Assembly (NCBI GenBank): GCA_028101965.1
Contig: JAOHMI010000002.1
Span: 13,438-77,437, forward strand
Length of the DNA: 64,000 nt
DNA from: Bacteriovoracaceae bacterium
GTDB lineage: Bacteria > Bdellovibrionota > Bacteriovoracia > Bacteriovoracales > Bacteriovoracaceae
Direction of reading: 5' to 3'
The notes under the pieces were generated by a model. It was not told the DNA's origin, did no database searches, and was given only the letters and a program-made list of their open reading frames with translations. Each line of letters starts with the position of its first letter. Positions within the stretch are counted from its first letter, which is position 1. Below are positions 1,940 through 58,926 of this stretch, in pieces. The position numbers were made by a program, and so were the translations under genes.

Positions 1940-2719
1940 ATGAAATTAATTCTTATTGCATTACTCGGGTTAAGTTTGAACGTCTTTTCACAGTCTAAGG
2001 ATGAAGCAGATGCTTTATGGCAACAAAGAGGTGATGACCTCAATAATGCCAAGCTAGCAGCTGAAATGTATGAGGAAGTTTCTAAGACAGTTTCAACTGA
2101 ACTTACTGCTGCTAAATTATTACTGGATGCTTCAAATGCTTACTACATCTACGCAGATTATAGTAAGGGGAAGAACCTCAAGAAAAAATTTCATACTAAA
2201 GGTATGAATGTAGCGATCCGTGCTCAAAACTTAATTAAAGATACTGAAGAGAAAGCACTTCTGGCTTTAGCTTACTATCGTCACGGAATTAACTTAGGAA
2301 AATGGGGAAAAGCAAATGGTGTTGCCTCTTCAATCAAGAAAGCTCCTAAGTTAAGAAGCCTAATGAAGAAAGTTATCAAAATGGGATTTGAGAGCATGGA
2401 ATTCTATGGTGCTCACAGAACATTAGGAAAATTAGACTTTGAAATTCCAAAGCCTTTAGGTGGATCTAAGAAGCGTGCTTATAAAGCATTAAAGATTGCT
2501 TTTGATAATACTCAAGATGAAAGTGGAGTTGCGAGTGTACTTGGAACGAATAACCTTTATTTAGCTGATTCATTTTCCAATCGTGGAAAAAAAGAAGAAG
2601 CGATAAAAATCTTGAAGGGATTTTTAACTTTAGATCCTTCAATTATTCCTGGACGGGAGTTTGAAACTAAAGCGGAAATGGAAATCGCAAAAGAGAAATT
2701 AGAAAAACTTTCTAAATAA
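1940..2719 (+). CDS. Secreted TPR-like protein, paralogue of the TatT-type TRAP accessory protein
   Basis: ORF 1910..2719. The preferred start is ATG 1940, 6 nt after AAGGAG. Signal peptide MKLILIALLGLSLNVFSQ. It shares the block NLGKWGK...GA.R..G...GGS..K with ORF 5059..5937. Confidence 0.45.
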   Translation: MKLILIALLGLSLNVFSQSKDEADALWQQRGDDLNNAKLAAEMYEEVSKTVSTELTAAKLLLDASNAYYIYADYSKGKNLKKKFHTKGMNVAIRAQNLIKDTEEKALLALAYYRHGINLGKWGKANGVASSIKKAPKLRSLMKKVIKMGFESMEFYGAHRTLGKLDFEIPKPLGGSKKRAYKALKIAFDNTQDESGVASVLGTNNLYLADSFSNRGKKEEAIKILKGFLTLDPSIIPGREFETKAEMEIAKEKLEKLSK

Positions 2720-2726
2720 AACATAG

Positions 2727-2756
2727 AGGGAGGAGAAAACCTCCCTTCTTTTTTTT
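2727..2756 (+). terminator. Rho-independent terminator
   Basis: Stem-loop AGGGAGG-AGAAAA-CCTCCCT followed directly by TCTTTTTTTT, just after the stop codon at 2719. Confidence 0.6.
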
Positions 2757-2766
2757 GGGAATAATT

Positions 2767-4029
2767 ATGATAAACAATAAATTTTTAATTATTTTTTACT
2801 TATTAACATTTAGTTTATTTGCTAACGAAGGAAACTTGCGTTTTCCCATGGCTTTTGAAAATGCCAATGTTTTACCCAAGGGTATTAGAAATGTGCAAAT
2901 CAGAAATGGGCAATATGTGGCCAGAGATAAGTATGATAATGATGGAAATGTGCAAAATTTAGGTGCACCTCTAAATAAGGATGTTAAGTTTCTCGACTTT
3001 GTGGATGCCCAAGAAACTGAGTTTAAAAAGGGACAACTGCAAGGAGCGCTCAAGGCAGGTGGTGTCTCAGAAAATGATATTGCAGGTGAAACCACAGGTC
3101 AGGTTCAAATCGATATTGATGCTCAAGTTCCTATCTTTGCTTACGGTGTAACTGAAAAATGGACCACAGCATTTGCTATACCTATTGTAACAACTAAGGT
3201 TGATATTAAAACAGGTTTTAAGTCTTCAGGTACTTCTGATTCATTCGTTTCTCAAGAGTTTGTTTCCAAAGGTTTGAGAAATAAAGCTTATGAGATGCAA
3301 TCTAAAACGGATCAGGCAATTAAAAGAAAGTTGAGAAGATATGATTATGATGACGATTTAGAAGATCGAGAAGAGACTCGATTGGGAGATATCGTTCTCG
3401 TTAATAAGTATAATGTAATTAAAAATAAAAAATCAGTTTTAACCTTGAGAGGAGATTTGGTTTTACCAACCGGTGAAACTACTGATGTCGACAGGGCGGT
3501 TGATGTTGGAAGTGGTGATGGTCAGATGGATATTGGAATTGGTGGAGCCTATACATACTTCCTCAATGATACTTTCTCTTTAACCACATTTCTTTCTTAT
3601 ACAAATCAAATGGCAGCTTATGGTGTTGATCGCAGAATTCCTGAAAAAGCTAGTACTAAAGTTACTCCTGATATCGATCGTAATACACGAGTGGACCTTG
3701 GGGACCAATATATCGGGCAAATTTATTTATCAGCGAAAATTGGCGAAACTCCCTTCACTTTAATGGGAGGATTTCATGCTGCTCTAAAAGAAGAAGATCG
3801 GTATTCCGGGGATAAATATAGTTCGAGAAGGTATAATTACTTGAATCGGGACACTGATCAAGAAATGCATGCAACTTTAGCCGGTATGACATTTTCAACG
3901 GTGGGAATGTTTCGCCGAGGAGAGTTCAAAGTACCTTTGCAGATTTCTTTAATGGGCACAAATGTTTATCGCGGAAGAAATGCCATTAAAGATAATTTAA
4001 CTTCATTTGAATTTAGTTTATTTTTCTAA
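2767..4029 (+). CDS. Outer-membrane beta-barrel protein (family not recognised)
   Basis: ORF 2755..4029, with an ATG at 2767. Hydrophobic leader FLIIFYLLTFSLFANEG. Gly- and aromatic-rich alternating segments. The C-terminus ...SFEFSLFF ends in Phe, as is typical of OM barrels. Confidence 0.5.
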   Translation: MINNKFLIIFYLLTFSLFANEGNLRFPMAFENANVLPKGIRNVQIRNGQYVARDKYDNDGNVQNLGAPLNKDVKFLDFVDAQETEFKKGQLQGALKAGGVSENDIAGETTGQVQIDIDAQVPIFAYGVTEKWTTAFAIPIVTTKVDIKTGFKSSGTSDSFVSQEFVSKGLRNKAYEMQSKTDQAIKRKLRRYDYDDDLEDREETRLGDIVLVNKYNVIKNKKSVLTLRGDLVLPTGETTDVDRAVDVGSGDGQMDIGIGGAYTYFLNDTFSLTTFLSYTNQMAAYGVDRRIPEKASTKVTPDIDRNTRVDLGDQYIGQIYLSAKIGETPFTLMGGFHAALKEEDRYSGDKYSSRRYNYLNRDTDQEMHATLAGMTFSTVGMFRRGEFKVPLQISLMGTNVYRGRNAIKDNLTSFEFSLFF

Positions 4030-28108: not shown

Positions 28109-29518
28109 TTAAAAATTAATTGAAGATTTAAATTTTAAATTACCTTTATCATAAGATTGTTTAAGCCCTTTTCTTAAGACCCAGAATAAATCTGATGTTT
28201 GAGAAAAGGGCTTCTTCATAAAGTTACCTAAGTCTCTTTTTAGCAAGCGAAATAAAACAATCCATTTGGGAAGATTTAACTCTATTACTAAATCTACAGG
28301 GGGAAGTAGATTTTTAATTAAATTGTAATTTCCTTCAATAATCCAGGATTGACTTTTTAGCTGTTTATTTAAAGATACCTTAAAGTTATCTTTCTCACTT
28401 TTCCCTTTTTGATTTTCTTCCCAGCGTAAATTATCAGTTTCTATATGGTGAAAACCTAAGTCTTGGAAAAGTTTTTTTGCAAGAGTGGATTTACCCGATC
28501 CTGGGTTTCCGAGAATTAATATTTTCTTATAATCCTTACTATGAATTGTATTTATTAGGTCATTATATTCTTGATTGGCCATTGATTTTTCATGCATAAG
28601 TGAAGCCAAACCAGAACGCACTCGCTGCATAAAATGCTCAAATCTTTTGGATCGAGATTCTAACCAGGATAATATTTTTTTGACTAAGGAGCTTCGTCTT
28701 AGAAAAAAAAGTAAAGTTAAGATGGCCATAGGGCGAAGGCATCGGATCATGACTTCATCCATACTTAACCCTTGAAAAGTGAGTAAAAGAACAAAGAAAA
28801 CCATTGTTAAGATAAAGAATGGGTTTAACAATTCTTTTACATAGGATTGAAAATGATTTGTGCATTTTTTATCTTTTAAGGGAAGATGTTTTCCTAATTT
28901 TTTAATTTTGGCATCGAGCTGACCCCACTTTTCTTCTGCCCACTTTTGAGTCGTGAAAAGAAGAATTATTCCAGTTATACATTTAAAAAAATAGACAGTA
29001 AGAATGAAAAAAATGATAAATTTTGGATCGATTCCAAATTTATTTATTTTTGTTTGGGCATAGTCTAATGCTGGAATGAAGTCTATGCCAAAAATTATTA
29101 AATAACTAAGAATTGGCTGAAAAAAAGCCCATAAAGACAATAATACCAGACCAATCCCATGACCTAATTTATTTCGACCAAAAATTATCACTCCTATTGT
29201 AAAAAGAAGACCCTGCATGAACAAGCTGATCATTGGCCCGAGTCGTTTTCCACCTGGGCTGAGGGTTTTAAAGAAAGCAACTAAAGCTGAGACTTCTAAG
29301 CAAGCTTTTGTTGCTTCGATGCGGGTCTCTTCTGCATATGATAATCTACTTAAGTAAATAGCTTGATTAAGTGAAAGCATATGCCCTGTAAATGGAAATT
29401 TTAAACTGTGAAGAAGGCTGCCTAAGACAATTTCAATAAGGGATAAATGGACTGCACTGTTTAAGCGTAAGTCAACATTCGTATTAGTTAAATTGTTTAA
29501 AGATAAATTATTTTCCAT
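28109..29518 (-). CDS. Fusion of a polytopic membrane domain to a C-terminal adenylate-kinase-like P-loop domain
   Basis: About 300 N-terminal residues are hydrophobic. The C-terminal KKILILGNPGSGKSTLAKKL...IIEGNY resembles small NMP-kinase / topology-modulation-like proteins. Confidence 0.6.
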   Translation of the reverse strand: MENNLSLNNLTNTNVDLRLNSAVHLSLIEIVLGSLLHSLKFPFTGHMLSLNQAIYLSRLSYAEETRIEATKACLEVSALVAFFKTLSPGGKRLGPMISLFMQGLLFTIGVIIFGRNKLGHGIGLVLLSLWAFFQPILSYLIIFGIDFIPALDYAQTKINKFGIDPKFIIFFILTVYFFKCITGIILLFTTQKWAEEKWGQLDAKIKKLGKHLPLKDKKCTNHFQSYVKELLNPFFILTMVFFVLLLTFQGLSMDEVMIRCLRPMAILTLLFFLRRSSLVKKILSWLESRSKRFEHFMQRVRSGLASLMHEKSMANQEYNDLINTIHSKDYKKILILGNPGSGKSTLAKKLFQDLGFHHIETDNLRWEENQKGKSEKDNFKVSLNKQLKSQSWIIEGNYNLIKNLLPPVDLVIELNLPKWIVLFRLLKRDLGNFMKKPFSQTSDLFWVLRKGLKQSYDKGNLKFKSSINF

Positions 29519-49948: not shown

Positions 49949-50704
49949 CTATATATTTGAAACTAGTTTCTTGATCGATGACTCAGATTGCCCATGTATA
50001 TTTGCTGGCCAAATCTGATACTTTATCACTAGAGTTTCATTATTGATTTTTAAATTTAAGCTATTTTCATCAATGGCCATCGGAAGTGTCAGAATTTTTT
50101 CTCTAATTAAATTTAAGGTTTCATCATTCTTTTTTTCATCTTTTAACTTTATTTCAAGTTCACACTGAGCATAATTTTTTGATTGAATTAAAGTAACAGG
50201 GTGATTATAAATATCTTTAGTGGGGATAAAGACTTGGTTTCCGTCCTCTAAAACAAGGGTTGATTTAAAATAGCCTAAGCTTTTAACTCGGCCTGTGTAT
50301 TCTTTTATGTGAATTTTATCTCCTAAAAAGAATGGCCTATTAAATACGAGTGAAAGATACCTAAAAAGACGGTAACTTCCTAATGTAAATCCAATTACAA
50401 GAAAAGAAAAAAGTATATTTATAGGAATAATTCCAATTAGTGGAAGGTCTCGTGATAAGAGCAAAAAACGATTGACAACTATTCCAAAAATGATAATGAA
50501 TATTGGCCATTTAGTCAGAGCGCTAATCAAATCAGTTTCAAGCTCAAGTATTTTTATGAGCCGCCCAATTAAGGATCGAATAACGAGTAAGGTGAAAACG
50601 ATAGACAGAAGAATGATAATATCCACAAATAGATCTTTGTAGATATAGTTATTTAAACTTCCAACTTGTTCATTCCAACTTTTTAAAAAATTAGTTAAAT
50701 TCAT
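49949..50704 (-). CDS. MscS-like mechanosensitive channel family protein (short)
   Basis: The start at 50704 gives MNLTNFLKSW. It overlaps the upstream stop by 14 nt. TM helices are followed by FFLGDKIHIKEYTGRVKSLGYFKSTLVLEDGNQVFIPTKDI, the MscS beta-domain signature. Confidence 0.65.
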   Translation of the reverse strand: MNLTNFLKSWNEQVGSLNNYIYKDLFVDIIILLSIVFTLLVIRSLIGRLIKILELETDLISALTKWPIFIIIFGIVVNRFLLLSRDLPLIGIIPINILFSFLVIGFTLGSYRLFRYLSLVFNRPFFLGDKIHIKEYTGRVKSLGYFKSTLVLEDGNQVFIPTKDIYNHPVTLIQSKNYAQCELEIKLKDEKKNDETLNLIREKILTLPMAIDENSLNLKINNETLVIKYQIWPANIHGQSESSIKKLVSNI

Positions 50705-53700
50705 TATGAATTTTCCATTTGTTTTCAAAAGGGTTGAGAATAATACTACCGAGCAGGCTGCGAGCAACATGTCGTGTAGCAATTCTATTTTTCTTGCTAT
50801 TACTAAATGAGATTACATTTAAATTATATAAGTAGTTAACAGACTGAAGAATTTCATTTTGGTTTAGGTGCGTGCTTCTTGAGAGCTCACTAATATTACA
50901 TTCACCAAACTTAAGAAGATAACTTAAGGTAACAAAAACTTTTTCAGGTAATTCGCTAACTAAATGAGATTCTAGCTTAAAGCTTTTAATACTTCTATTC
51001 AATGTGACTTTATCATTTTCAGGATTCAGATTTGTTAGCCAATGGTAAATAAGGAGTCTGATATTTCCATGAGAATTATTTATGACTTTTGATACTGACC
51101 GTTTGAAGAATATATTATTCTTGGATGCTTCAAAACTAATATTCTTATTTCGATGTTCTAATTGAACTCCACTTGCAGTTTGACGATTTTTAATTATGTC
51201 AAAGGCAACATCATAGGAGAGAGGTTGAATTGTATAGATTTTATTTGCGAGAAGGTAGAGCGAGAATGTTTTATTGAGAAAATCATATGAACTTTGATTG
51301 AGAGTAAAAATCCATAAAGTTTTTTTGTTTCCAAAGAATAAATTACTAATTTGGGATTTAAAATATTGAATATTAGATCCATGAATAATCCATTGGTCTA
51401 GGTCATCAATTAATACAACTCGTCTTCGTTGATCAAAATAATTGGTTTGATCTAGTTTCTGTATCGCCTCAGGAAGACCTTTTCGCTTTTGCAAGAAGGT
51501 ATCATCGATCCGTTTGATGTTTTCACATTTAAGATCAATTTGCAGCATATTCAGTAATGAAGTTTTTCCACTCCCAGATGGGCCATTGATAAAAAGAACT
51601 GAAGACTCATTTTTATTCATCCATGATTGCTCAAACTCTAAAATTGATTCGAGAATGTCTTGATTGGCCAACATAAACTTGGAGCTTTTGATCGGGTCAA
51701 ATGTGAAGCAATCTAAAAAGTAAGGTGGATAATTGTTTAAATTAATTTGGTCAATTTTCTCACACGTATCAGAGAGTTTTTTTAAGTTCTTACTAAATAT
51801 ATTTCGATGCTGCCTTTCTTTAAAGTCTTCACTTGGTGCAAGTTCTCCGATCGTTTCTTGATATAGGTTTTTCAAGAAGAATAATGTCATCTTTTTAATG
51901 GATTTAAAAAAATTAGGCATTTCATTAAAAACAAAATCACTTAAAAAATAAATTCTTTTTTTGGCCAAATTAATGACTGAGTAACTGTGAAACTTCTCAT
52001 AAACTTGTCCAATGGATTGAGAAGTATTTGTTGAAAGTTGGTGATGGTTTTCTTCAACTTTCTGGTCTAGTTCTTTTAAAATTTTGGATAAGCTATTTTT
52101 ATATTTACCAATAAATTCACTGAGCTGGTTTTGATCAAGAATGTTTTTTGATCTTAACTCAGTTGGAGTTTCTACTTCCTCAAGAATAATATTAAACTTT
52201 CCTAAAACGTCGTTAATTTCAATTCTGGTTTTTTCGAAAATCTCAGATAAACCTTCGACCTTTTCTTCGAGCTGAGGAATGATTTCAAAAGTAATAATTT
52301 GATGTATATATTTCTCATAATTAAAATTGAAATTCTGAAAATTCCGAAAACTTTCTACAAATAATTGGTCAGAGTCGAGATATATAGATTTATTAGTGGG
52401 GATAAATTCTTTTTCGAGCAATTTGATGTGAGAATTAAAATCCTGCTCTATTTCATAAGGGTTGAGGTAACAAATATGATTAAGTGAGGACTGTAGATTC
52501 TCTATGATTCCTTTTAAGTGTTTAGATTTGATTTTTAATGACTCATTAATATCCTGAGATTCAATGAGAAAGTCAAAATCATTAAAGATAGGCCCTAGAG
52601 TTTTCTTAGTATCATCTTTTAGTTTATTTGTTTTACTGAAGTATTTTTCCTTAATAAATAAATTAAATAGGTGATTGAAATTTTGATGATTGTTATAATT
52701 AATCAAACAATCAGACAGAGCTTGAAGAGTTTGTCTTAACTCATTTTGATTATTGAAAAACTTTGCCTTGGCTTTTAATAATAAATTTCTTTTTTTGGAA
52801 AACTTAAGATTGAATTTTCGGTGTTCACTGAGACCATATCGATTGAAGAAATTATATAAAGTTGAGCGAGAATTTCTATCAGATATTTTAATTTGGTCTA
52901 AGCTGAATTGAATTTTAGACTGGAGGTCGAAAATTTTAATATCTTGAAATAGGTTTTCAAAATATATCTCTGAGAATTGGAAAATTGTGGAATTATGTAA
53001 ATAGCTATAATAGATTTTTTGTAAGATGTCTAACTCACGGATTATTAAGCTCGAAGTTTCAGATTTTATTATAGTTTGTATTGGGTAGTGAACTGTATAG
53101 GCATTTTTAGTTGAAGTGAAAAAGCTTTTTAAAATAAAGTGAATATTTATTCTTCTATTCCAAATACTATTTCTTTTAAATTCATTAATAACATCATGAT
53201 TTATGAGTATCGGTAGACTTGAGGGGAGAGCTTCGATTAAGTTTTCTAGTTTTCTTTGTACTTTATTGAATTTATTATTTATGGTTTGATCCAATAAACT
53301 AAAAGTATTGGAAATATTTTTTCCGGTAATTTTTTGTTTAGTTAAGTTGAGTTCTTCATTAGAGCAATGATCAAAATCGAAAAAGTATTTTTCTTGTTCT
53401 AAGTTTTTAATGATTTGATTAATGGGCACAATGAGTTCTTCTTGATAGATACTTGCTTTTTTCTGATAAAAATCATCAATATGTTTTTGCAATTGCTCTG
53501 AAGCGAGTGTTCTATTTAAACCATGCTCATTAGTTACTTTTAAGTTTTGATTAAGTTTTATTTTTATAAATGAGAGAGGGAGTGTTTTGTTTATTTTAAG
53601 TGTTTCTTGGCTTTCTTCATCAGAAGAATCTTTTTCAACTGTTTCTAATGAGGTATCACTTTCTTCTGGAATGTCGCCAACCTTCTTTAATGAGAGTTTT

Positions 53701-54944
53701 AAGAGTATTGGACCGGTTAAAAGATTTAATGTAACAAGACCCATTCCAACCACTCTAATGTCATTTGAAAACTGAGGGAATTTCTGAGCTGCTAGTTCAA
53801 TTAAACCAAGTGTTACTCCTGCTTGAGGAATATAACCAAGAAAACCAATCTTTGAAATTTTACTCTCTTCTCTGGCCCATTGGAGGCCATAACGACCGGC
53901 CACGAACATACTTAAAAAACGAGCACAATATAATATGATTGCTATGGGGAGAATGGAAAGGGTATCATGAACTCCAATATTTGCTCCTGCATTAGTAAAG
54001 AAAATTACAAAAACAGGGAGAGATACTTTAACCAGGAGGTGATGAAGTTCTTTCTCAAATTTTGTATAATTAACAATATAAATTCCTGCCGCAATGAGAG
54101 TTAAGAGATATTCAAGATGAAAAGTTCTGCAAATATCAAAACTGGCAATAAGAATGACGATGACAAAGAGAAAGTTTTCAAAATTTATAAATTTTAAATA
54201 AACATGAATTACTAAACCTATAAGAATTCCCGCGACCAGAGATAAGCCTATCTCATGAGAAAGGTTCGCTACGATATTAGACAATTTTAAATTTGCTTCG
54301 GGTTTAAGCAAGAAATTTCCGACGGTGGCCGCGATGGTTAAAAGAACCACAACGATGAGGTCTTTTATGACTGCCGTGTTTAGTATGAGGTTACTTAATC
54401 GACCCTTAGCTTTTGATTCGTTAATGATTGCAAGTACGATAGCAGGAGAAGTCCCATAGCATAAAGTGCTAATGACCATAGACATGACGAAAAGCGCGGT
54501 ATTGCTATATTCAGTTTCACCAAAGAATTTGAAGCTTAAAAATAGAGCAGGGGTAACGATAAGATAGATGGCCAAGATCTTAATGATTGAGGTTTTCCAC
54601 AAAGCATTAATACTTCGATAAAGGGAAGAGAATTTTAATTCTAATCCGGCACTAAGGGCAATAATTCCGATCGCTAAATTATTAAACATTTTTAGTTTCT
54701 CTACTACACCTGAAGAAAGCATTTTGCCTAGCTCAGGACCGAGCATAAGTCCTGCAAGTATGTATCCTGTTACCATGGGAAGGCCAAAATTAGAGCCTAT
54801 TTCAGCAAAAGTATAGGCCACTAAAAGTAATGCGCCCATTGAAACTAAAGTTTCAGCAACAAAAAATTCTTTTAAAAAAGGAATATCCTGCTTTGTTAGG
54901 TAGAAAAGGAAAATGAAAAATATTAAAAAAAATAGCTTCTTCAT
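50691..54944 (-). CDS. 1417-aa fusion protein: N-terminal CPA-type (Na+/H+ exchanger/Kef-like) membrane domain, about 650-aa helical region, P-loop ATPase, then a winged-helix-like C-terminus
   Basis: GYILAGLMLGPELG and LSAGLELKF are CPA signatures in the first 430 or so aa. Walker A FINGPSGSGKTSLL is encoded at 51561-51584. Walker B VVLIDDLD is encoded at 51396-51419. The C-terminal LSYLLKFGECNISELSRSTHLNQNEILQSVNYL is wHTH-like. Confidence 0.7.
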   Translation of the reverse strand: MKKLFFLIFFIFLFYLTKQDIPFLKEFFVAETLVSMGALLLVAYTFAEIGSNFGLPMVTGYILAGLMLGPELGKMLSSGVVEKLKMFNNLAIGIIALSAGLELKFSSLYRSINALWKTSIIKILAIYLIVTPALFLSFKFFGETEYSNTALFVMSMVISTLCYGTSPAIVLAIINESKAKGRLSNLILNTAVIKDLIVVVLLTIAATVGNFLLKPEANLKLSNIVANLSHEIGLSLVAGILIGLVIHVYLKFINFENFLFVIVILIASFDICRTFHLEYLLTLIAAGIYIVNYTKFEKELHHLLVKVSLPVFVIFFTNAGANIGVHDTLSILPIAIILYCARFLSMFVAGRYGLQWAREESKISKIGFLGYIPQAGVTLGLIELAAQKFPQFSNDIRVVGMGLVTLNLLTGPILLKLSLKKVGDIPEESDTSLETVEKDSSDEESQETLKINKTLPLSFIKIKLNQNLKVTNEHGLNRTLASEQLQKHIDDFYQKKASIYQEELIVPINQIIKNLEQEKYFFDFDHCSNEELNLTKQKITGKNISNTFSLLDQTINNKFNKVQRKLENLIEALPSSLPILINHDVINEFKRNSIWNRRINIHFILKSFFTSTKNAYTVHYPIQTIIKSETSSLIIRELDILQKIYYSYLHNSTIFQFSEIYFENLFQDIKIFDLQSKIQFSLDQIKISDRNSRSTLYNFFNRYGLSEHRKFNLKFSKKRNLLLKAKAKFFNNQNELRQTLQALSDCLINYNNHQNFNHLFNLFIKEKYFSKTNKLKDDTKKTLGPIFNDFDFLIESQDINESLKIKSKHLKGIIENLQSSLNHICYLNPYEIEQDFNSHIKLLEKEFIPTNKSIYLDSDQLFVESFRNFQNFNFNYEKYIHQIITFEIIPQLEEKVEGLSEIFEKTRIEINDVLGKFNIILEEVETPTELRSKNILDQNQLSEFIGKYKNSLSKILKELDQKVEENHHQLSTNTSQSIGQVYEKFHSYSVINLAKKRIYFLSDFVFNEMPNFFKSIKKMTLFFLKNLYQETIGELAPSEDFKERQHRNIFSKNLKKLSDTCEKIDQINLNNYPPYFLDCFTFDPIKSSKFMLANQDILESILEFEQSWMNKNESSVLFINGPSGSGKTSLLNMLQIDLKCENIKRIDDTFLQKRKGLPEAIQKLDQTNYFDQRRRVVLIDDLDQWIIHGSNIQYFKSQISNLFFGNKKTLWIFTLNQSSYDFLNKTFSLYLLANKIYTIQPLSYDVAFDIIKNRQTASGVQLEHRNKNISFEASKNNIFFKRSVSKVINNSHGNIRLLIYHWLTNLNPENDKVTLNRSIKSFKLESHLVSELPEKVFVTLSYLLKFGECNISELSRSTHLNQNEILQSVNYLYNLNVISFSNSKKNRIATRHVARSLLGSIILNPFENKWKIHNEFN

Positions 54945-54946
54945 AG

Positions 54947-56203
54947 TTATGACTTCGGACTAAAAATGCCCTCAACCTTTTTTAATTCATCGCAATCAAT
55001 GAGCATTGCGCGAGCCTTGTTTAGACCAACAATTTCAAAAAATAATAAATTTATTAATGAGATAAAAATAATTTCGGATGATATTTCTGGGTAATATTCA
55101 CCAATCATCATGGCCAAGACAACGATGACAGTGTCTTGAGCTAAGACACCTCTTCCTAGAAATTGAAAATGATTGGGGGTTTTAAAAAAGAAAAGGGTTA
55201 TTTGCTTTGCCAGTAAGAATTGAATAAAAGCAAAGCGTAGTGTTATAAAAAGGGCGGCTAATCCGATGATCTCAAAAGAGGGGATAGATATGTTGCTTGA
55301 GGCGACAACTAAAACAATTGCTAAAATTGGTTGTCTTTGTGCTTGTATTATTTTGGCCAATTTATCAGCATCCTTATAGAGCTTGCTAACCATAATTCCC
55401 ATGAGGACGTTGATAAGAAGAACACCACATCCTAAATGGAAGCCAAGTCCGGCCGCAAAGAAGACTCCACCAAGTGTGGCCAGAATGATTCTATTTTCTT
55501 GGTTTGATTTTCCAATGAATTGAGTGAGTAAAAAACCTAATAGGGGTCCAATGGCCAGCATAGAAAGAGTGACAATCGCATGAGTTGAAGTAACTTGGTG
55601 ATCAGTGAAACCGGAAAAAAGTTGAGTGGAAAAAGTAAGTAGTCCTAAAGCTATAATGACCCAAAATTGAAGAGCATTATTAACTTGATTGATAAAGGGA
55701 AAGACCACTCCAGATGATTTAACATCTTTTGTGGTGAAGAAGTGAATTAATCCTGAAGAGTAGGGAAAAACAAATGATAAAAATAATATTAAATAATAAT
55801 ATCTCGATTGATAAAAATCTTCGATACTGTTTATACCAAAATATTTCCTCCCCACAATAAAGAAAAGTGAGACAAACATCATAAAAAATAAACCAGAGCT
55901 AAAAATATAAATAATAAAGGTTTTTGATATTAAATATTTTTCGGTTTTTGAGGGGAGTAGTTTAAGTCCAATCCAAAATGAAAGAGAAGAACCTAAAATA
56001 TAAGCTAGAATTTTAAGTGAGCTCATTCCATCCGCACTAACCAGGGCATTGTTAAAATTTGGACCAAGTAATGTTCCAAGTATGAAGAAAACACTTATTT
56101 TGACGAAGCTGCTATTTCGGCCAAAATAATTCACTAGCTTGGAGGCGGCGAAGGCCAAAATGATAATTAGGGTAAATATGAGAGAGGTGCTAATTCCTTG
56201 CAA
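54947..56203 (-). CDS. CPA-type cation/proton antiporter-like membrane protein
   Basis: FFILGTLLGPNF and SLSFWIGLKL resemble CPA motifs. The protein is polytopic and 418 aa long. Its stop is 2 nt from the start of the downstream gene. Confidence 0.6.
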   Translation of the reverse strand: MQGISTSLIFTLIIILAFAASKLVNYFGRNSSFVKISVFFILGTLLGPNFNNALVSADGMSSLKILAYILGSSLSFWIGLKLLPSKTEKYLISKTFIIYIFSSGLFFMMFVSLFFIVGRKYFGINSIEDFYQSRYYYLILFLSFVFPYSSGLIHFFTTKDVKSSGVVFPFINQVNNALQFWVIIALGLLTFSTQLFSGFTDHQVTSTHAIVTLSMLAIGPLLGFLLTQFIGKSNQENRIILATLGGVFFAAGLGFHLGCGVLLINVLMGIMVSKLYKDADKLAKIIQAQRQPILAIVLVVASSNISIPSFEIIGLAALFITLRFAFIQFLLAKQITLFFFKTPNHFQFLGRGVLAQDTVIVVLAMMIGEYYPEISSEIIFISLINLLFFEIVGLNKARAMLIDCDELKKVEGIFSPKS

Positions 56204-56290
56204 ACCAATCCTTCGTTTTGAACATTATATATTATAGATAATATTTTATTATAGAGAAGGTTAGTCGGGATTAAGGGGGGAGAGTTTGCC

Positions 56291-57553
56291 TTAGGTCAGG
56301 GCTTTGATTTTATTCATATAAGCATTCTTCATGGCCAATTCAAATTCATCATTGTCTTTATACTCAAATCCAAAAACTGGTTTCCAATGCCGTTTGTTTT
56401 CCATGCAGAGGTAAAAGAAGACTTGATCGTGCCAAGGAGCGAAGTTGTCATAAACCATACGAAAGAGCTTGTGTTTAATTTCATCCGGGTAACTTAGCTT
56501 TCCGTCCGCTTCTACCATAGGCATTTGAAGAACTTTAGAAGGGACTTTCTTCTGACGAATTTCTTTAATAACTGAAGGGGTGAAAGTGAGCGTTCCTAAA
56601 GAAATTAAGGCAACTTTGTTCACATCAAAAGTATTCACAATGCGTTTAACAATGGCCGCGTATTCTTGTTCACAATTATCAAAATAAAACATGGGATGAA
56701 AATGAAATCCAACTAAGTGGCCTTTATCCGCAAGTTTTCTGGCGCTTCTTAATCTTTCTTCCAGGGAGGCAGTATACAATTCTTCATTTTGAATCACCAC
56801 ATCTGGATTCATGGTCCAGGTAAAGAGAAGATTTTTAGGAAGATCAGTCTCCAGAAGAAACTTAATATTTTTACTTTTAGTTTTCAGCTCTAAAATGACA
56901 TTTGGATGCTTGCGGGCCCAATTAAAAAGTGTTTCAAGATTTCCATTCTTATTTCCCCACAATAGGGAGTCAGAACTTTGTCCGGTTCCAATATGGTAAG
57001 TTAGGTTTGGGTCTATGGGAATAGCATCTAATTTTTGCTCTAAGTTTTCTTCCATAAGAATAGTATCTTGGCCTTCATAAAAAGATTGAATTGAACAGTA
57101 GGTACAACCAAAGGCACAGTTGAGGGCCACATCAAGAGTTTGCAAATTGCAGCACAAAGTTTTATCGGAATAAACAGGGCAAGTGGAAATAATTTTACTC
57201 TCTGTATCGGCAACTCCAAAAGATAAAGCACTATCTCTCGTTAGTTTTTTTTCAGGAACTTCGTAAGTTTTCTTTTGCGGATCTTTTAAACTTTCCACAT
57301 ATTTTTTTATTTGGTTAAAAAATAATTTCTTATTAAGTTTCTTATGTTGTGAGAAATCCAAGTGACTGAGAGGTTTTTCTTGCCACATTTTAATATCGCG
57401 ACTGTATTCAAGAATAATTTTAATCTGCTGAAAAGATAAATTCAGTTCATTAGAGTAACTTTCGAGCCAGGATTTTTCTTTGGCAGGAATTTCGTTCTCA
57501 AATGGAATCGTTTTTAGGGCCGAAGCGAATTTTTCAATTGCTTGAGTTGTCAT
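56291..57553 (-). CDS. Radical SAM protein, spore-photoproduct-lyase/DNA-photolyase-like (COG1533-like), with an N-terminal extension
   Basis: NCAFGCTYCSIQ is a CxxxCxxC cluster. The overall resemblance to SplB-like proteins is from memory. The start shares 1 nt with the hemN stop (TAATG). Confidence 0.5.
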   Translation of the reverse strand: MTTQAIEKFASALKTIPFENEIPAKEKSWLESYSNELNLSFQQIKIILEYSRDIKMWQEKPLSHLDFSQHKKLNKKLFFNQIKKYVESLKDPQKKTYEVPEKKLTRDSALSFGVADTESKIISTCPVYSDKTLCCNLQTLDVALNCAFGCTYCSIQSFYEGQDTILMEENLEQKLDAIPIDPNLTYHIGTGQSSDSLLWGNKNGNLETLFNWARKHPNVILELKTKSKNIKFLLETDLPKNLLFTWTMNPDVVIQNEELYTASLEERLRSARKLADKGHLVGFHFHPMFYFDNCEQEYAAIVKRIVNTFDVNKVALISLGTLTFTPSVIKEIRQKKVPSKVLQMPMVEADGKLSYPDEIKHKLFRMVYDNFAPWHDQVFFYLCMENKRHWKPVFGFEYKDNDEFELAMKNAYMNKIKALT

Positions 57554-58926
57554 TAATGAGTCCTGGAAAATCGAATTTGTTCTGATTTTTCAAATAAGTG
57601 AGAATCAAAACAGCGTGCGATATTTCTTAAAAAATCTTCTCCGCGACCGGTGACCTTAAGTTCATCTTTATCTATTGATATCAACTCATCTTGCTTAAGT
57701 TGATCCAGCTCTTTATGAGAGAAATGAATAAAATCAGCAGTGAATTGCTCTTTATTGATGAGAGAAATATCGGCTTCATAGTTACACATAATATCTTGGA
57801 TAATTTTATCAATAATTTTGTCTGTCTCTGAAAGAGTGTGTCCGTAGTAGAAAGGAAGTTCATTTTTATCTATTCTTTCATAATAATCATTGAGAACTTT
57901 TTCATTTTGAATGAAATGATCTGAAGAATTTGAGATGGCCGAGACGCCTAACCCTAAAAGAATTCGGCTTTTCTTGTCCACATATCCCATGAAGTTACGA
58001 TATAATTTATTGTTCTTTTTTGCTTGGTAAAGAAAGCTTGAGGATTTGGCAAAATGATCCAATCCTATCGAGTGATAGTCATTTTTATTAAATAGCTTGC
58101 AAGCATTTTCAAAAATTTCAAACTTTACTTCTTTGGTCGGTAGAAATTGTTCAGGAATTGCTTTTTGGACTTTGATTTTAGCAGGTAAATGAGCATAGAG
58201 GTAAAAGGCAATTAAATCTGGTTCGAGCTCTATTACTTGCTCAACAGTTCTTTGATTATTCTTGATGGTCTGATGGGGTAAACCATATATTAGATCAAAG
58301 TTAAGTGAATCAAATTTACGTTTGCGAATTTCACTAGTTAATTTTTCCACTAAAGAAAATGGTTGAATTCGATTTACACTTTCTTGCACCTGGGGGTCAA
58401 AGTCTTGGACTCCAAAACTGAGGCGAGAAAAGCCGTATTCTTTTAAAACATCGAGAAGTTCAACATCGAACTCACGCGGATCAATTTCAATGGACCCAAT
58501 AAAACTCTGAGTAAAATGGGGCTTAAAGTTATCTAAAAGCTGACTCATTTGAGTGGGAGTTAAAAATGAAGGTGTTCCTCCTCCAAAATGAAGCGAGTTA
58601 ATCTTGATGTCGCCTAGGCTATCGAGGTATAACCGCCATTCCTTTGCCACAGCTAATATATATTTGTCTGAACGAGTCTTATCTTTTGTGATGAGCTTAT
58701 TGCAACCACAAAAATAGCAAAGTGTGTCGCAAAAGGGGATATGAATATACAAATCAATACCTTCTGGAGTGTGCAGAAGGTTAGACTTAAGAGAGTTTCT
58801 CCAGGCTTCTTGGTTCGTTAACCCCTTCCAAAAAGGAAATGGTGGATAGCTCGTGTACCTAGGAGCGTTCATGGCATATTTCTGCAAAAGCTGCCATTTA
58901 TCCTGGCGTTCCGGTGTTATATTCAT
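57553..58926 (-). CDS. hemN: Oxygen-independent coproporphyrinogen III oxidase (radical SAM)
   Basis: YIHIPFCDTLCYFCGCN, HFGGGTPS and a HemN-like C-terminal domain. Confidence 0.9.
   Translation of the reverse strand: MNITPERQDKWQLLQKYAMNAPRYTSYPPFPFWKGLTNQEAWRNSLKSNLLHTPEGIDLYIHIPFCDTLCYFCGCNKLITKDKTRSDKYILAVAKEWRLYLDSLGDIKINSLHFGGGTPSFLTPTQMSQLLDNFKPHFTQSFIGSIEIDPREFDVELLDVLKEYGFSRLSFGVQDFDPQVQESVNRIQPFSLVEKLTSEIRKRKFDSLNFDLIYGLPHQTIKNNQRTVEQVIELEPDLIAFYLYAHLPAKIKVQKAIPEQFLPTKEVKFEIFENACKLFNKNDYHSIGLDHFAKSSSFLYQAKKNNKLYRNFMGYVDKKSRILLGLGVSAISNSSDHFIQNEKVLNDYYERIDKNELPFYYGHTLSETDKIIDKIIQDIMCNYEADISLINKEQFTADFIHFSHKELDQLKQDELISIDKDELKVTGRGEDFLRNIARCFDSHLFEKSEQIRFSRTH

Follow-up and report, generated by a model that had tools for sequence, protein, structure and literature searches.

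We analysed a 64,000-nucleotide stretch of DNA from a Bacteriovoracaceae bacterium (contig JAOHMI010000002.1, positions 13,438 to 77,437; hereafter the window) and describe a three-gene operon at 49949-56203 on its minus strand. As judged from sequence comparison and predicted structure, the operon would encode a regulated ion-homeostasis transporter and channel set that is previously undescribed in the literature we searched. Gene 1 and the N-terminal part of gene 2 belong to the cation/proton antiporter (CPA) fold, the gene 2 protein continues into an AAA+ ATPase with a winged helix, and gene 3 specifies a small MscS-like protein. The conserved core of this system is the ATPase/winged-helix module together with the small MscS-like channel, with CPA, Trk and CorA proteins as variable ion-transport partners. 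The whole package may represent a nucleotide-switch-regulated K+/osmotic homeostasis module, a reading to which we assign a probability of roughly 50%. A role of the operon in ion homeostasis rather than in defence appears likely.

The three genes are closely packed, with a spacing of 2 nt between genes 1 and 2 and 14 nt shared by genes 2 and 3. An earlier note on this DNA, made from the sequence alone, had described the same packing, and our open reading frame (ORF) coordinates agree with it exactly:

54947..56203, minus strand: gene 1, 418 aa, TTG start
50691..54944, minus strand: gene 2, 1417 aa, beginning 2 nt past the end of gene 1
49949..50704, minus strand: gene 3, 251 aa from the ATG at 50704, overlapping the end of gene 2 by 14 nt

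The gene 3 ORF extends to a TTG at 50782 (49949..50782), with the ATG at 50704 yielding the 251-aa protein; gene 3 homologues likewise abut or overlap their upstream gene. The anatomy drawn in the earlier note has stood throughout our analysis. It did not include the degeneracy of gene 1, the pairing of ATPase module and MscS-like gene as a core, or the frequent loss of ATPase residues across the family, all of which are described below.

The C-terminal part of the gene 2 protein contains the following elements:

51225..51737, minus strand: AAA+ alpha/beta base, residues 1070-1240, opening with an (L)PxxYxxxF motif
51561-51584, minus strand: Walker A motif GPSGSGKT, residues 1121-1128
51402-51419, minus strand: Walker B motif VVLIDD, residues 1176-1181
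50970..51224, minus strand: AAA+ lid, residues 1241-1325, delimited by DSSP of the structural model
51183-51185, minus strand: Arg-1254 in the lid, invariant (100 % conserved)
51042-51074, minus strand: box VIII-like sensor-2 motif S-x-G-N-I-R in the lid
50694..50969, minus strand: winged-helix domain, residues 1326-1417, placed by PDB profile matches and Foldseek

In the model, the DSSP topology runs from b1-a1 to b5 and continues into the lid and the winged helix. The top Foldseek matches were Cdc6/ORC proteins (E = 2e-7 to 1e-5), followed by RuvB and Apaf-1/NLR; the best structures (7jgr_G, 7tji_I, 2qby_A, 1fnn_A and 1w5t_A) aligned over 350-450 columns with E = 2e-7 to 5e-6. Profile matches in the PDB concur, with 2qby, ORC4 and RuvB and, for the winged helix (residues 1323-1405), winged helix-turn-helix (wHTH) proteins of the MarR/ArsR type. 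At the sequence level the winged helix matches MarR, ArsR, XylR and TrmB regulators, its homologues match Pfam MarR_2 and TrmB, and it occupies the same position as the winged-helix domain of Cdc6/ORC. The ORC/Cdc6- or STAND-like P-loop NTPase with a helix-turn-helix-like tail that the earlier note had proposed is thus supported by both Foldseek and the PDB profiles. All Pfam and NCBIfam matches of the module fell below the curated cutoffs, including those to nSTAND, NACHT and AAA_16, and sequence searches of the proteins P0148 and P0189 against the PDB gave no matches. Neither Pfam nor NCBIfam identified TrkA_N or TrkA_C (KTN/RCK) domains in gene 2, in line with the earlier observation that no such domain occupies its usual Kef position. 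A known transporter regulatory domain in the tail, which that note had named as a possible outcome, was considered and rejected, since Pfam, NCBIfam and the PDB sequence and profile searches returned only P-loop- or wHTH-level matches, apart from apolipoprotein-like ones to the helical region.

The state of the ATPase residues was assessed across 178 family members, none of them identical. Conservation is high for the P-loop glycines (96-97 %), Asp-1180 of Walker B (92 %) and Gly-1293 in the lid (97 %). The Walker A lysine is replaced by arginine in 41 % of the members, often with the sensor-2 arginine lost as well; the latter (Arg-1296) is retained in 49 % of the family, and the second acidic residue of Walker B is an asparagine in 20 %. 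No position in the alpha4 region exceeds 41 % Arg/Lys across the family, and a conserved arginine finger is absent. The window copy contains the full canonical set (K, T, DD, R). The module thus has the initiator-clade AAA+ layout (Walker A and B, base, lid and winged helix), and the hydrolysis residues of that clade, a conserved arginine finger and the sensor-2 arginine, are not maintained family-wide. Because the Walker A lysine, Walker B and sensor 2 are often degenerate and a conserved arginine finger is missing, the pattern fits a nucleotide-binding switch with slow or dispensable hydrolysis rather than a ring motor. A STAND-type core layout would also be compatible, but a C-terminal repeat sensor (TPR, WD40 or LRR) is absent, as the protein ends with the winged helix. 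Given the membrane fusion and the transport-gene context, we consider a role in replication unlikely.

A hidden Markov model (HMM) of the C-terminal module (~357 positions, starting at LPxxYxxLF) matched, end to end and with E = 1e-55 to 1e-80, the extreme C terminus of proteins that lack both the CPA and the middle domain of gene 2. These carriers, from Myxococcota, 'Deltaproteobacteria' and Desulfuromonas and annotated merely as AAA or ATP-binding proteins, are either soluble (730-930 aa) or membrane proteins with other unrecognised transmembrane (TM) domains; some resemble receptors in that TM helices are combined with a signal peptide and an extensive periplasmic portion. We inspected the following CPA-less contexts:

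L085, 6001-10421
L086, 4896-10479
L087, 5001-8581
L088, 5001-8014
L089, 5001-9045
L090, 5001-9431
L091, 3210-6993

The next gene was MscS-like (265-329 aa) in 7/7 cases, at a spacing of -8 to +14 nt. These partners matched the HMM of the gene 3 family with E = 1e-30 to 1e-40, and a canonical three-domain MscS in one CPA-less locus did so with 1.8e-24. CorA adjoins in two of the seven loci (L086 and L091). In L091, MscS-like genes stand on both sides of the module gene, and a Usp gene is present as well. We conclude that the module and the MscS-like gene form the conserved core because their pairing persists in all seven CPA-less contexts. A word-index survey for further architectures carrying the C-terminal module gave no matches, and metagenome scans with two CPA-less carriers gave nothing informative. 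Elsewhere in the window, a 469-aa ORF (28109-29518, minus strand) with an AAA_17 P-loop near its C terminus matched the module HMM weakly (1.3e-4), which probably reflects generic P-loop similarity.

We next consider where the complete operon occurs. The exact gene 2 protein is deposited at NCBI as a hypothetical protein of a Bacteriovoracaceae metagenome-assembled genome (MAG). A word search recovered 79 gene 2 homologues, nearly all of 1300-1500 aa, an exhaustive search with the gene 2 tail alone gave 153 representative clusters, and in total ~180 full-length homologues are found in Bdellovibrionota, Myxococcota and a few other groups. Scanning one genome per GTDB species with 10 query sequences yielded 77 loci, from Bdellovibrionota, Myxococcota (Polyangiaceae and Nannocystaceae), one Ignavibacterium MAG and one Caldithrix MAG; cultured carriers are Plesiocystis pacifica SIR-1 (L076) and Paraliomyxa miuraensis (L060). 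After ORF calling at every locus, we screened the ORFs with HMMs made for this purpose. The fusion is present in 69 loci. Gene 1 lies upstream of it in all 61 loci with enough sequence (60 counted by script, plus L077, where an over-long ORF call conceals gene 1), and an MscS-like gene lies downstream in 66/66. The three-gene synteny that the earlier note had asked about is therefore present in more than 60 other genomes. The operon, carried by predatory and related bacteria, is chromosomal and vertically conserved, and it looks single-copy and lineage-wide.

Two layouts dominate. The first, with gene 1, the fusion and the MscS-like gene in direct succession, is that of the window and occurs in 25 loci. 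The second has TrkA and TrkH genes inserted between gene 1 and the fusion; it occurs intact in 28 loci, and further in variants. In 35 of 61 loci, Trk genes stand within the operon, after gene 1 and before the fusion. These insertions encode a standard double-RCK TrkA (~445 aa) and TrkH (~485 aa); examples are L007 (3127-6001), L028 (3216-5998) and the loci of Paraliomyxa miuraensis and Plesiocystis pacifica. TrkA alone is inserted in L006, and in L005 a TrkH-TrkA pair is found 3' of the MscS-like gene. In the locus of the closest relative (L001), a gene for a cyclic-nucleotide-binding ion channel (Ion_trans and cNMP_binding; 2342-3700, minus strand) lies just upstream of the operon and is one more ion-flux gene in the operon neighbourhood.

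The membrane domain of gene 2 has the following features:

53664..54944, minus strand: CPA (NhaA-fold) membrane domain, residues 1-427, identified by Pfam PF00999
54444-54455, minus strand: G-T-S-P motif, aligned with the T-D-P unwound-helix motif of the NHE/NapA profile matches
54360-54365, minus strand: Lys-194 and Asp-195, aligned with the ND/DD motif

Pfam Na_H_Exchanger (PF00999) covers residues 40-388 with 82.8 bits against a cutoff of 26.2 (E = 2.8e-23), in keeping with the earlier assignment of the first ~430 residues as a second CPA-like domain, and the profile of the membrane-domain family matched NHE6, NHE9 and NapA structures in the PDB. Within the family, Lys-194 (95 %), Asp-195 (94 %) and Ser-166 (97 %) are highly conserved. 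Under the CPA-motif numbering that Masrati et al. (PMC6181914) use, the aspartate at position 7 (EcNhaA D164) is essential for transport. This residue is present in gene 2 as Asp-195, which aligns with the aspartate of the NHE 'ND' motif. Applied to the whole family, the scheme reads GTSP, no glutamate at position 5, and then K6 D7, with Arg-291 as a candidate for position 8. This last position, a basic residue in the helix before the second unwound helix, was placed by topology only, and a profile of the C-terminal half of the CPA domain found no match in the PDB that would confirm it. Residue 324 of the window protein is a glycine where 75 % of the family has aspartate; together with the residue at position 291 (see below), this may mean that the ion site of the window protein differs from that of its relatives. 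One family member, P0193 (1817 aa), contains CarboxypepD_reg-like beta-sandwich inserts inside the CPA domain, at ~residues 226-405.

Gene 1 encodes a polytopic membrane protein for which Pfam found no match of its own. A word search for homologues returned only gene 1 itself; orthologues were then gathered by synteny, and these align well. The resulting family profile matched the gene 2 membrane domain with an hhalign probability of 99.7 % (E = 4e-25, 377 columns), and the orthologue in locus L004 matches PF00999 directly, which together bear out the earlier description of gene 1 as a CPA-like membrane protein. The site of Lys-194 and Asp-195 in gene 2 is Leu-Gln in window gene 1 and Ser/Gly/Ala followed by Gln in the gene 1 family, where residue frequencies place Gln at the Asp-195 position in 75 % of the members, the window protein included. 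Counterparts of gene 2 Glu-102, Glu-231, Glu-270, His-276 and Glu-278 are missing as well. Because of the Gln at the Asp-195 site and the loss of these five other intramembrane acidic or histidine residues, gene 1 is a divergent and degenerate relative of the gene 2 membrane domain, a paralogue without the ion-binding aspartate, and on its own it is probably not a transporter. The Caldithrix locus (L078, 1294-3785) is minimal: beside the paralogue of gene 1 it has a CPA paralogue of 431 aa that lacks the tail, and it contains no MscS-like gene; this pair may represent the ancestral heterodimer state. TCDB entry 2.A.37.6.1 (M. xanthus Q1D5P4, 432 aa, PMC3924187) might be grouped with it, as a candidate. 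In two Polyangiaceae loci (L002 and L003, 3810-4649) an extra 279-aa gene with no Pfam match overlaps the start of gene 1 by 4 nt, and may be a fourth operon member in this lineage.

Gene 3 matches PF00924 with 30.6 bits (cutoff 20.2), and its family profile aligned with MscS structures over TM1-TM3 and the beta domain (E = 7e-17), so that the short MscS-like channel of the earlier note is upheld. The protein has three TM helices, a beta domain, an RPFxxGD-type junction and a divergent C-terminal domain. Gene 3 is a small channel of the MscS family, putatively mechanosensitive in its gating.

Between the membrane domain and the ATPase, the gene 2 protein contains two further segments:

53511..53663, minus strand: acidic linker, residues 428-478 (ESDTSLETVEKDSSDEESQE...), predicted to be disordered, with a predicted local distance difference test score (pLDDT) <50 in both AlphaFold2 models
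51738..53510, minus strand: all-alpha domain, residues 479-1069 (~590 aa), defined from the AlphaFold2 models

The middle domain is built from long helices of 38-84 residues each and two small beta hairpins. Two independent AlphaFold2 runs gave mean pLDDT values of 77.6 and 77.7, with many blocks of the helical domain >90. Residues 431-1090 are predicted to be almost wholly helical and are rich in Asn, Lys and Phe (9.8, 10.6 and 8.3 %, compared with 5.8, 7.8 and 5.9 % in other ORFs of the window). No Pfam or NCBIfam family matched the middle domain, and composition, helix prediction and these negative searches agree with the motif-less, N/K/F-rich helical stretch of ~650 aa seen previously. 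Foldseek revealed no significant neighbour in the PDB: the best matches, designed bundles and axonemal coiled coils, reached E = 0.13, and ClyA/NheA scored nowhere near significance. We treated apolipoprotein-like profile matches to the helical region as compositional bias. An HMM of the middle domain is essentially restricted to CPA fusions.

How these parts might work together can be outlined as follows. The CPA paralogues of genes 1 and 2 would pair as a heterodimer, in which one subunit is competent for transport and the other is a pseudo-subunit. The flexible acidic linker and the ~590-aa helical stalk tether the CPA domain to the AAA+ module, and this AAA+/winged-helix tail may act as a slow ATP/ADP-binding switch, not a motor, standing in for the RCK/KTN domain of Kef-type transporters. 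The state of the switch would set cation efflux via the CPA dimer and the opening of the MscS-like channel, and solute release might in this way be tuned to the energy and ionic status of the cell and, where Trk is present, to K+ uptake. The earlier note had left an 'ATP-gated osmotic or ionic regulator' as one of two options. We favour it in view of the Trk genes embedded in 35/61 operons, the pairing of ATPase module and MscS-like gene without a CPA domain, and the occasional neighbouring CorA. In its most specific form, the proposal is that the ORC/Cdc6-type AAA+/winged-helix module is a dedicated, physically coupled gate of a small MscS-family channel and, here, also gates the fused CPA exchanger that is heterodimeric with a pseudo-subunit. 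We put this form forward tentatively and hold it to be rather doubtful. If true, the complex would found a new class, that of nucleotide-gated solute release, and would be the first case in which a recruited initiator-clade AAA+ module controls membrane ion flux.

Several observations weigh against a nucleotide-switched homeostasis module as outlined. In the CPA motif, position 6 is a lysine (Lys-194), not the Asp, Asn or Gln of characterised Na+/H+ exchangers, and lysine is not among the variants at this position discussed in PMC6181914. Position 3 is a serine (Ser-166), giving T-S-P and not T-D-P, and the window protein has Val-291 (54072-54074) where 92 % of the family has arginine. Because of the lysine at position 6, the T-S-P motif and Val-291, the CPA domain may not be a classical cation/proton exchanger. 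No Trk genes are found in the window operon or elsewhere in the 64-kb window, and the CPA-less contexts sampled number seven. Finally, the winged helix might bind to DNA; the system would in that case be a signalling rather than a gating device.

This last point leads to the alternative that survives best, and which we nevertheless regard as unlikely. Here, the MscS-like and CPA proteins would be sensors (transceptors) in mechano- or ion-sensing signal transduction, and the ATPase-winged helix a nucleotide-dependent, DNA-binding regulator of ion-homeostasis genes, membrane-tethered in the fusions and soluble in some CPA-less relatives. The module shares the AAA+-lid-winged-helix layout of DNA-binding initiators, its winged helix resembles the MarR, ArsR, XylR and TrmB regulators in sequence, it is always found at the extreme C terminus, on soluble as well as on receptor-like proteins, and degenerate catalytic residues would suit a switch of this kind. 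Its recognition helix and wing, however, contain few conserved basic residues (Arg-1367, 60 %), with the conserved positions mostly belonging to the hydrophobic core, and in STAND proteins and some AAA+ switches the winged helix is an integral part that does not bind DNA. The fusion has moreover kept the transport-critical aspartate together with many acidic residues inside the membrane, and this speaks for genuine transport. No operator motif was seen, none having been searched for.

It is improbable that the module acts in assembly, as a scaffold or in quality control, with the AAA+ part oligomerising beneath the membrane on its helical stalk. It would then arrange the transporter and the heptameric MscS-like channel, or gather them into clusters, and exert no direct control of flux. 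AAA+ modules often drive assembly, the stalk appears long and rigid in the AlphaFold2 models, and both the strict gene pairing and the translational coupling with the MscS-like gene are in keeping with this role. The degenerate catalytic residues and the lack of a conserved arginine finger speak against a ring-forming hydrolase, and the nearest folds are of the switch and initiator types, not unfoldases.

Slightly more improbable still is the abortive-infection or anti-phage role that the earlier note had offered as its other option, and which is not supported here. A STAND-like NTPase would sense infection and open the CPA and MscS-like paths, collapsing membrane potential or turgor. There is precedent for membrane NTPases in defence: Tmn, in which a P-loop NTPase of the membrane has a cytosolic arm of helices, defends by Mg2+ export (bioRxiv 10.64898/2026.03.01.708804), and PifA is another example. 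The hhhhDD-type Walker B without an arginine finger is STAND-like, Apaf-1 and NLR are among the Foldseek matches, and nSTAND, NACHT and PifA models match weakly, below threshold. The PADLOC matches, however, are short (34-84 residues), low-scoring (E ≥ 1.8e-4) and of P-loop level: PifA aligned along 34 aa (E = 1.8e-4), mad8 at the P-loop region and a CARF-type model along 84 aa (E = 0.028). PADLOC-DB gave no Tmn match and none at all for genes 1 and 3, and the operon belongs to no PADLOC family. The operon is flanked by housekeeping and metabolic genes that vary by lineage, both in the window and at all related loci inspected; defence and mobile genes are absent from these flanks. Searches of 72,556 plasmids and 50,697 phages by tblastn found no homologue. 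The absence of a repeat-type sensor domain, the Lys-to-Arg replacement in Walker A in 41 % of the family and the Trk K+ uptake genes within about half of the operons likewise argue against defence.

That the 1417-aa ORF is an assembly or frameshift artefact joining a transporter and an ATPase gene, a caveat of the earlier note, has practically no probability, as the lengths of the homologues and the continuous TM-middle-C-terminal architecture of ~180 non-identical, full-length proteins from independent assemblies and several phyla demonstrate.

We compared the operon to known systems. By analogy, it would most resemble a Kef-type regulated exchanger with an MscS safety valve and Trk uptake, minus the defining RCK tail of Kef. 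As in KefC/KefB, one chain holds a CPA-fold membrane domain and, after it, a nucleotide-binding regulatory domain in the cytoplasm; the unwound-helix motif has a serine at position 3, as in the Kef-like LSST (PMC6181914), and the genomic company (Trk) is K+-related. Unlike Kef, gene 2 has a ~990-aa tail of helical stalk, ORC-like AAA+ and winged helix in place of RCK/KTN, a K-D instead of a Q-D motif, and as its partner a degenerate CPA paralogue, not KefF or KefG. In TrkAH/KtrAB, too, a cytoplasmic nucleotide sensor gates a K+ pathway, by RCK rings there and by a presumed switch here. TrkA and TrkH are physically present within about half of the operons, the window operon lacking them, but both the membrane fold and the nucleotide-binding fold differ.

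On the ATPase side, the module is structurally closest to Orc1/Cdc6 of archaea and ORC/Cdc6 of eukaryotes, with the same order of base, lid and winged helix and a sensor-2 motif (S-x-G-N-L/I-R-x-A) resembling box VIII. In contrast to these initiators, the module has membrane transport proteins as fusion partners or gene neighbours, lacks a conserved arginine finger, often has Arg for the Walker A Lys and has an hhhhDD instead of an hhhhDE Walker B; its recognition helix is poorly conserved, and its sequence matches stay below every Pfam and NCBIfam cutoff. STAND NTPases (Apaf-1/NLR, MalT and nSTAND) share the order of nucleotide-binding domain, helical domain and winged helix, the DD-type Walker B, the missing arginine finger and an N-terminal effector; gene 2 differs in having no C-terminal repeat sensor, in its below-cutoff nSTAND/NACHT matches and in its housekeeping context. 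In Tmn (YobI-family) and PifA (KAP-family), similarly, a P-loop NTPase at the membrane goes together with a cytosolic arm of helices and with ion export, yet they belong to other NTPase families, gene 2 has no TM helices within its P-loop domain, the PADLOC match to PifA spans 34 residues and that to Tmn is lacking, and the operon lies outside defence islands and mobile elements. Gene 3 corresponds to MscS/YnaI in its three TM helices, beta domain and RPFxxGD-type junction. It differs from them in its divergent C-terminal domain, only the middle Pfam domain being detected, and in its obligate pairing and translational coupling with an AAA+/winged-helix gene. To our knowledge, there is no precedent in the MscS family for such a pairing.

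Upstream of gene 1 lies a short AT-rich region:

56204..56290, minus strand: 87-nt intergenic region 5' of gene 1, containing boxes similar to TATAAT and a Shine-Dalgarno-like AAGGA site

It is the probable, putative promoter and ribosome-binding site of the operon. A consensus scan for promoters and terminators, uninformative in this AT-rich DNA (G+C ~34 % in the window), did not flag it and returned 46 sites compared with 37.6 expected. Directly upstream, at 56291-58926 on the minus strand, are a HemN gene (TIGR00538, 448 bits) and, downstream of it with a 1-nt overlap, a gene for a 420-aa radical-SAM protein resembling spore photoproduct lyase, which at 63.8 bits scores far below the spore-photoproduct-lyase cutoff of 400.

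The full-text literature searched, with most subscription journals outside its coverage, contained no description of a CPA-AAA+ fusion or an MscS/AAA+ gene pair, which agrees with the earlier note, whose author knew of no described antiporter-ATPase fusion.

The regulation of secondary transporters and mechanosensitive channels is credited to small ligand-binding domains (RCK/KTN, cNMP and CBS) or to membrane tension alone. The operon may add another type of regulator, an ORC/Cdc6-like AAA+ switch on a ~600-aa helical stalk of no matched fold, used by a lineage-wide family. It may also offer a naturally occurring CPA heterodimer in which one partner is a pseudo-subunit, and it has an unusual K-D ion-site motif. 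Cultured hosts (Plesiocystis pacifica, Paraliomyxa miuraensis and Desulfuromonas spp.) make the idea directly testable. If the coupling is real, it would represent a new principle of K+/osmotic regulation, in which energy state or nucleotides control emergency solute release, and it would provide a function for many proteins of Myxococcota, Bdellovibrionota and Desulfuromonadota that are labelled only 'AAA family ATPase' or 'cation:proton antiporter'.

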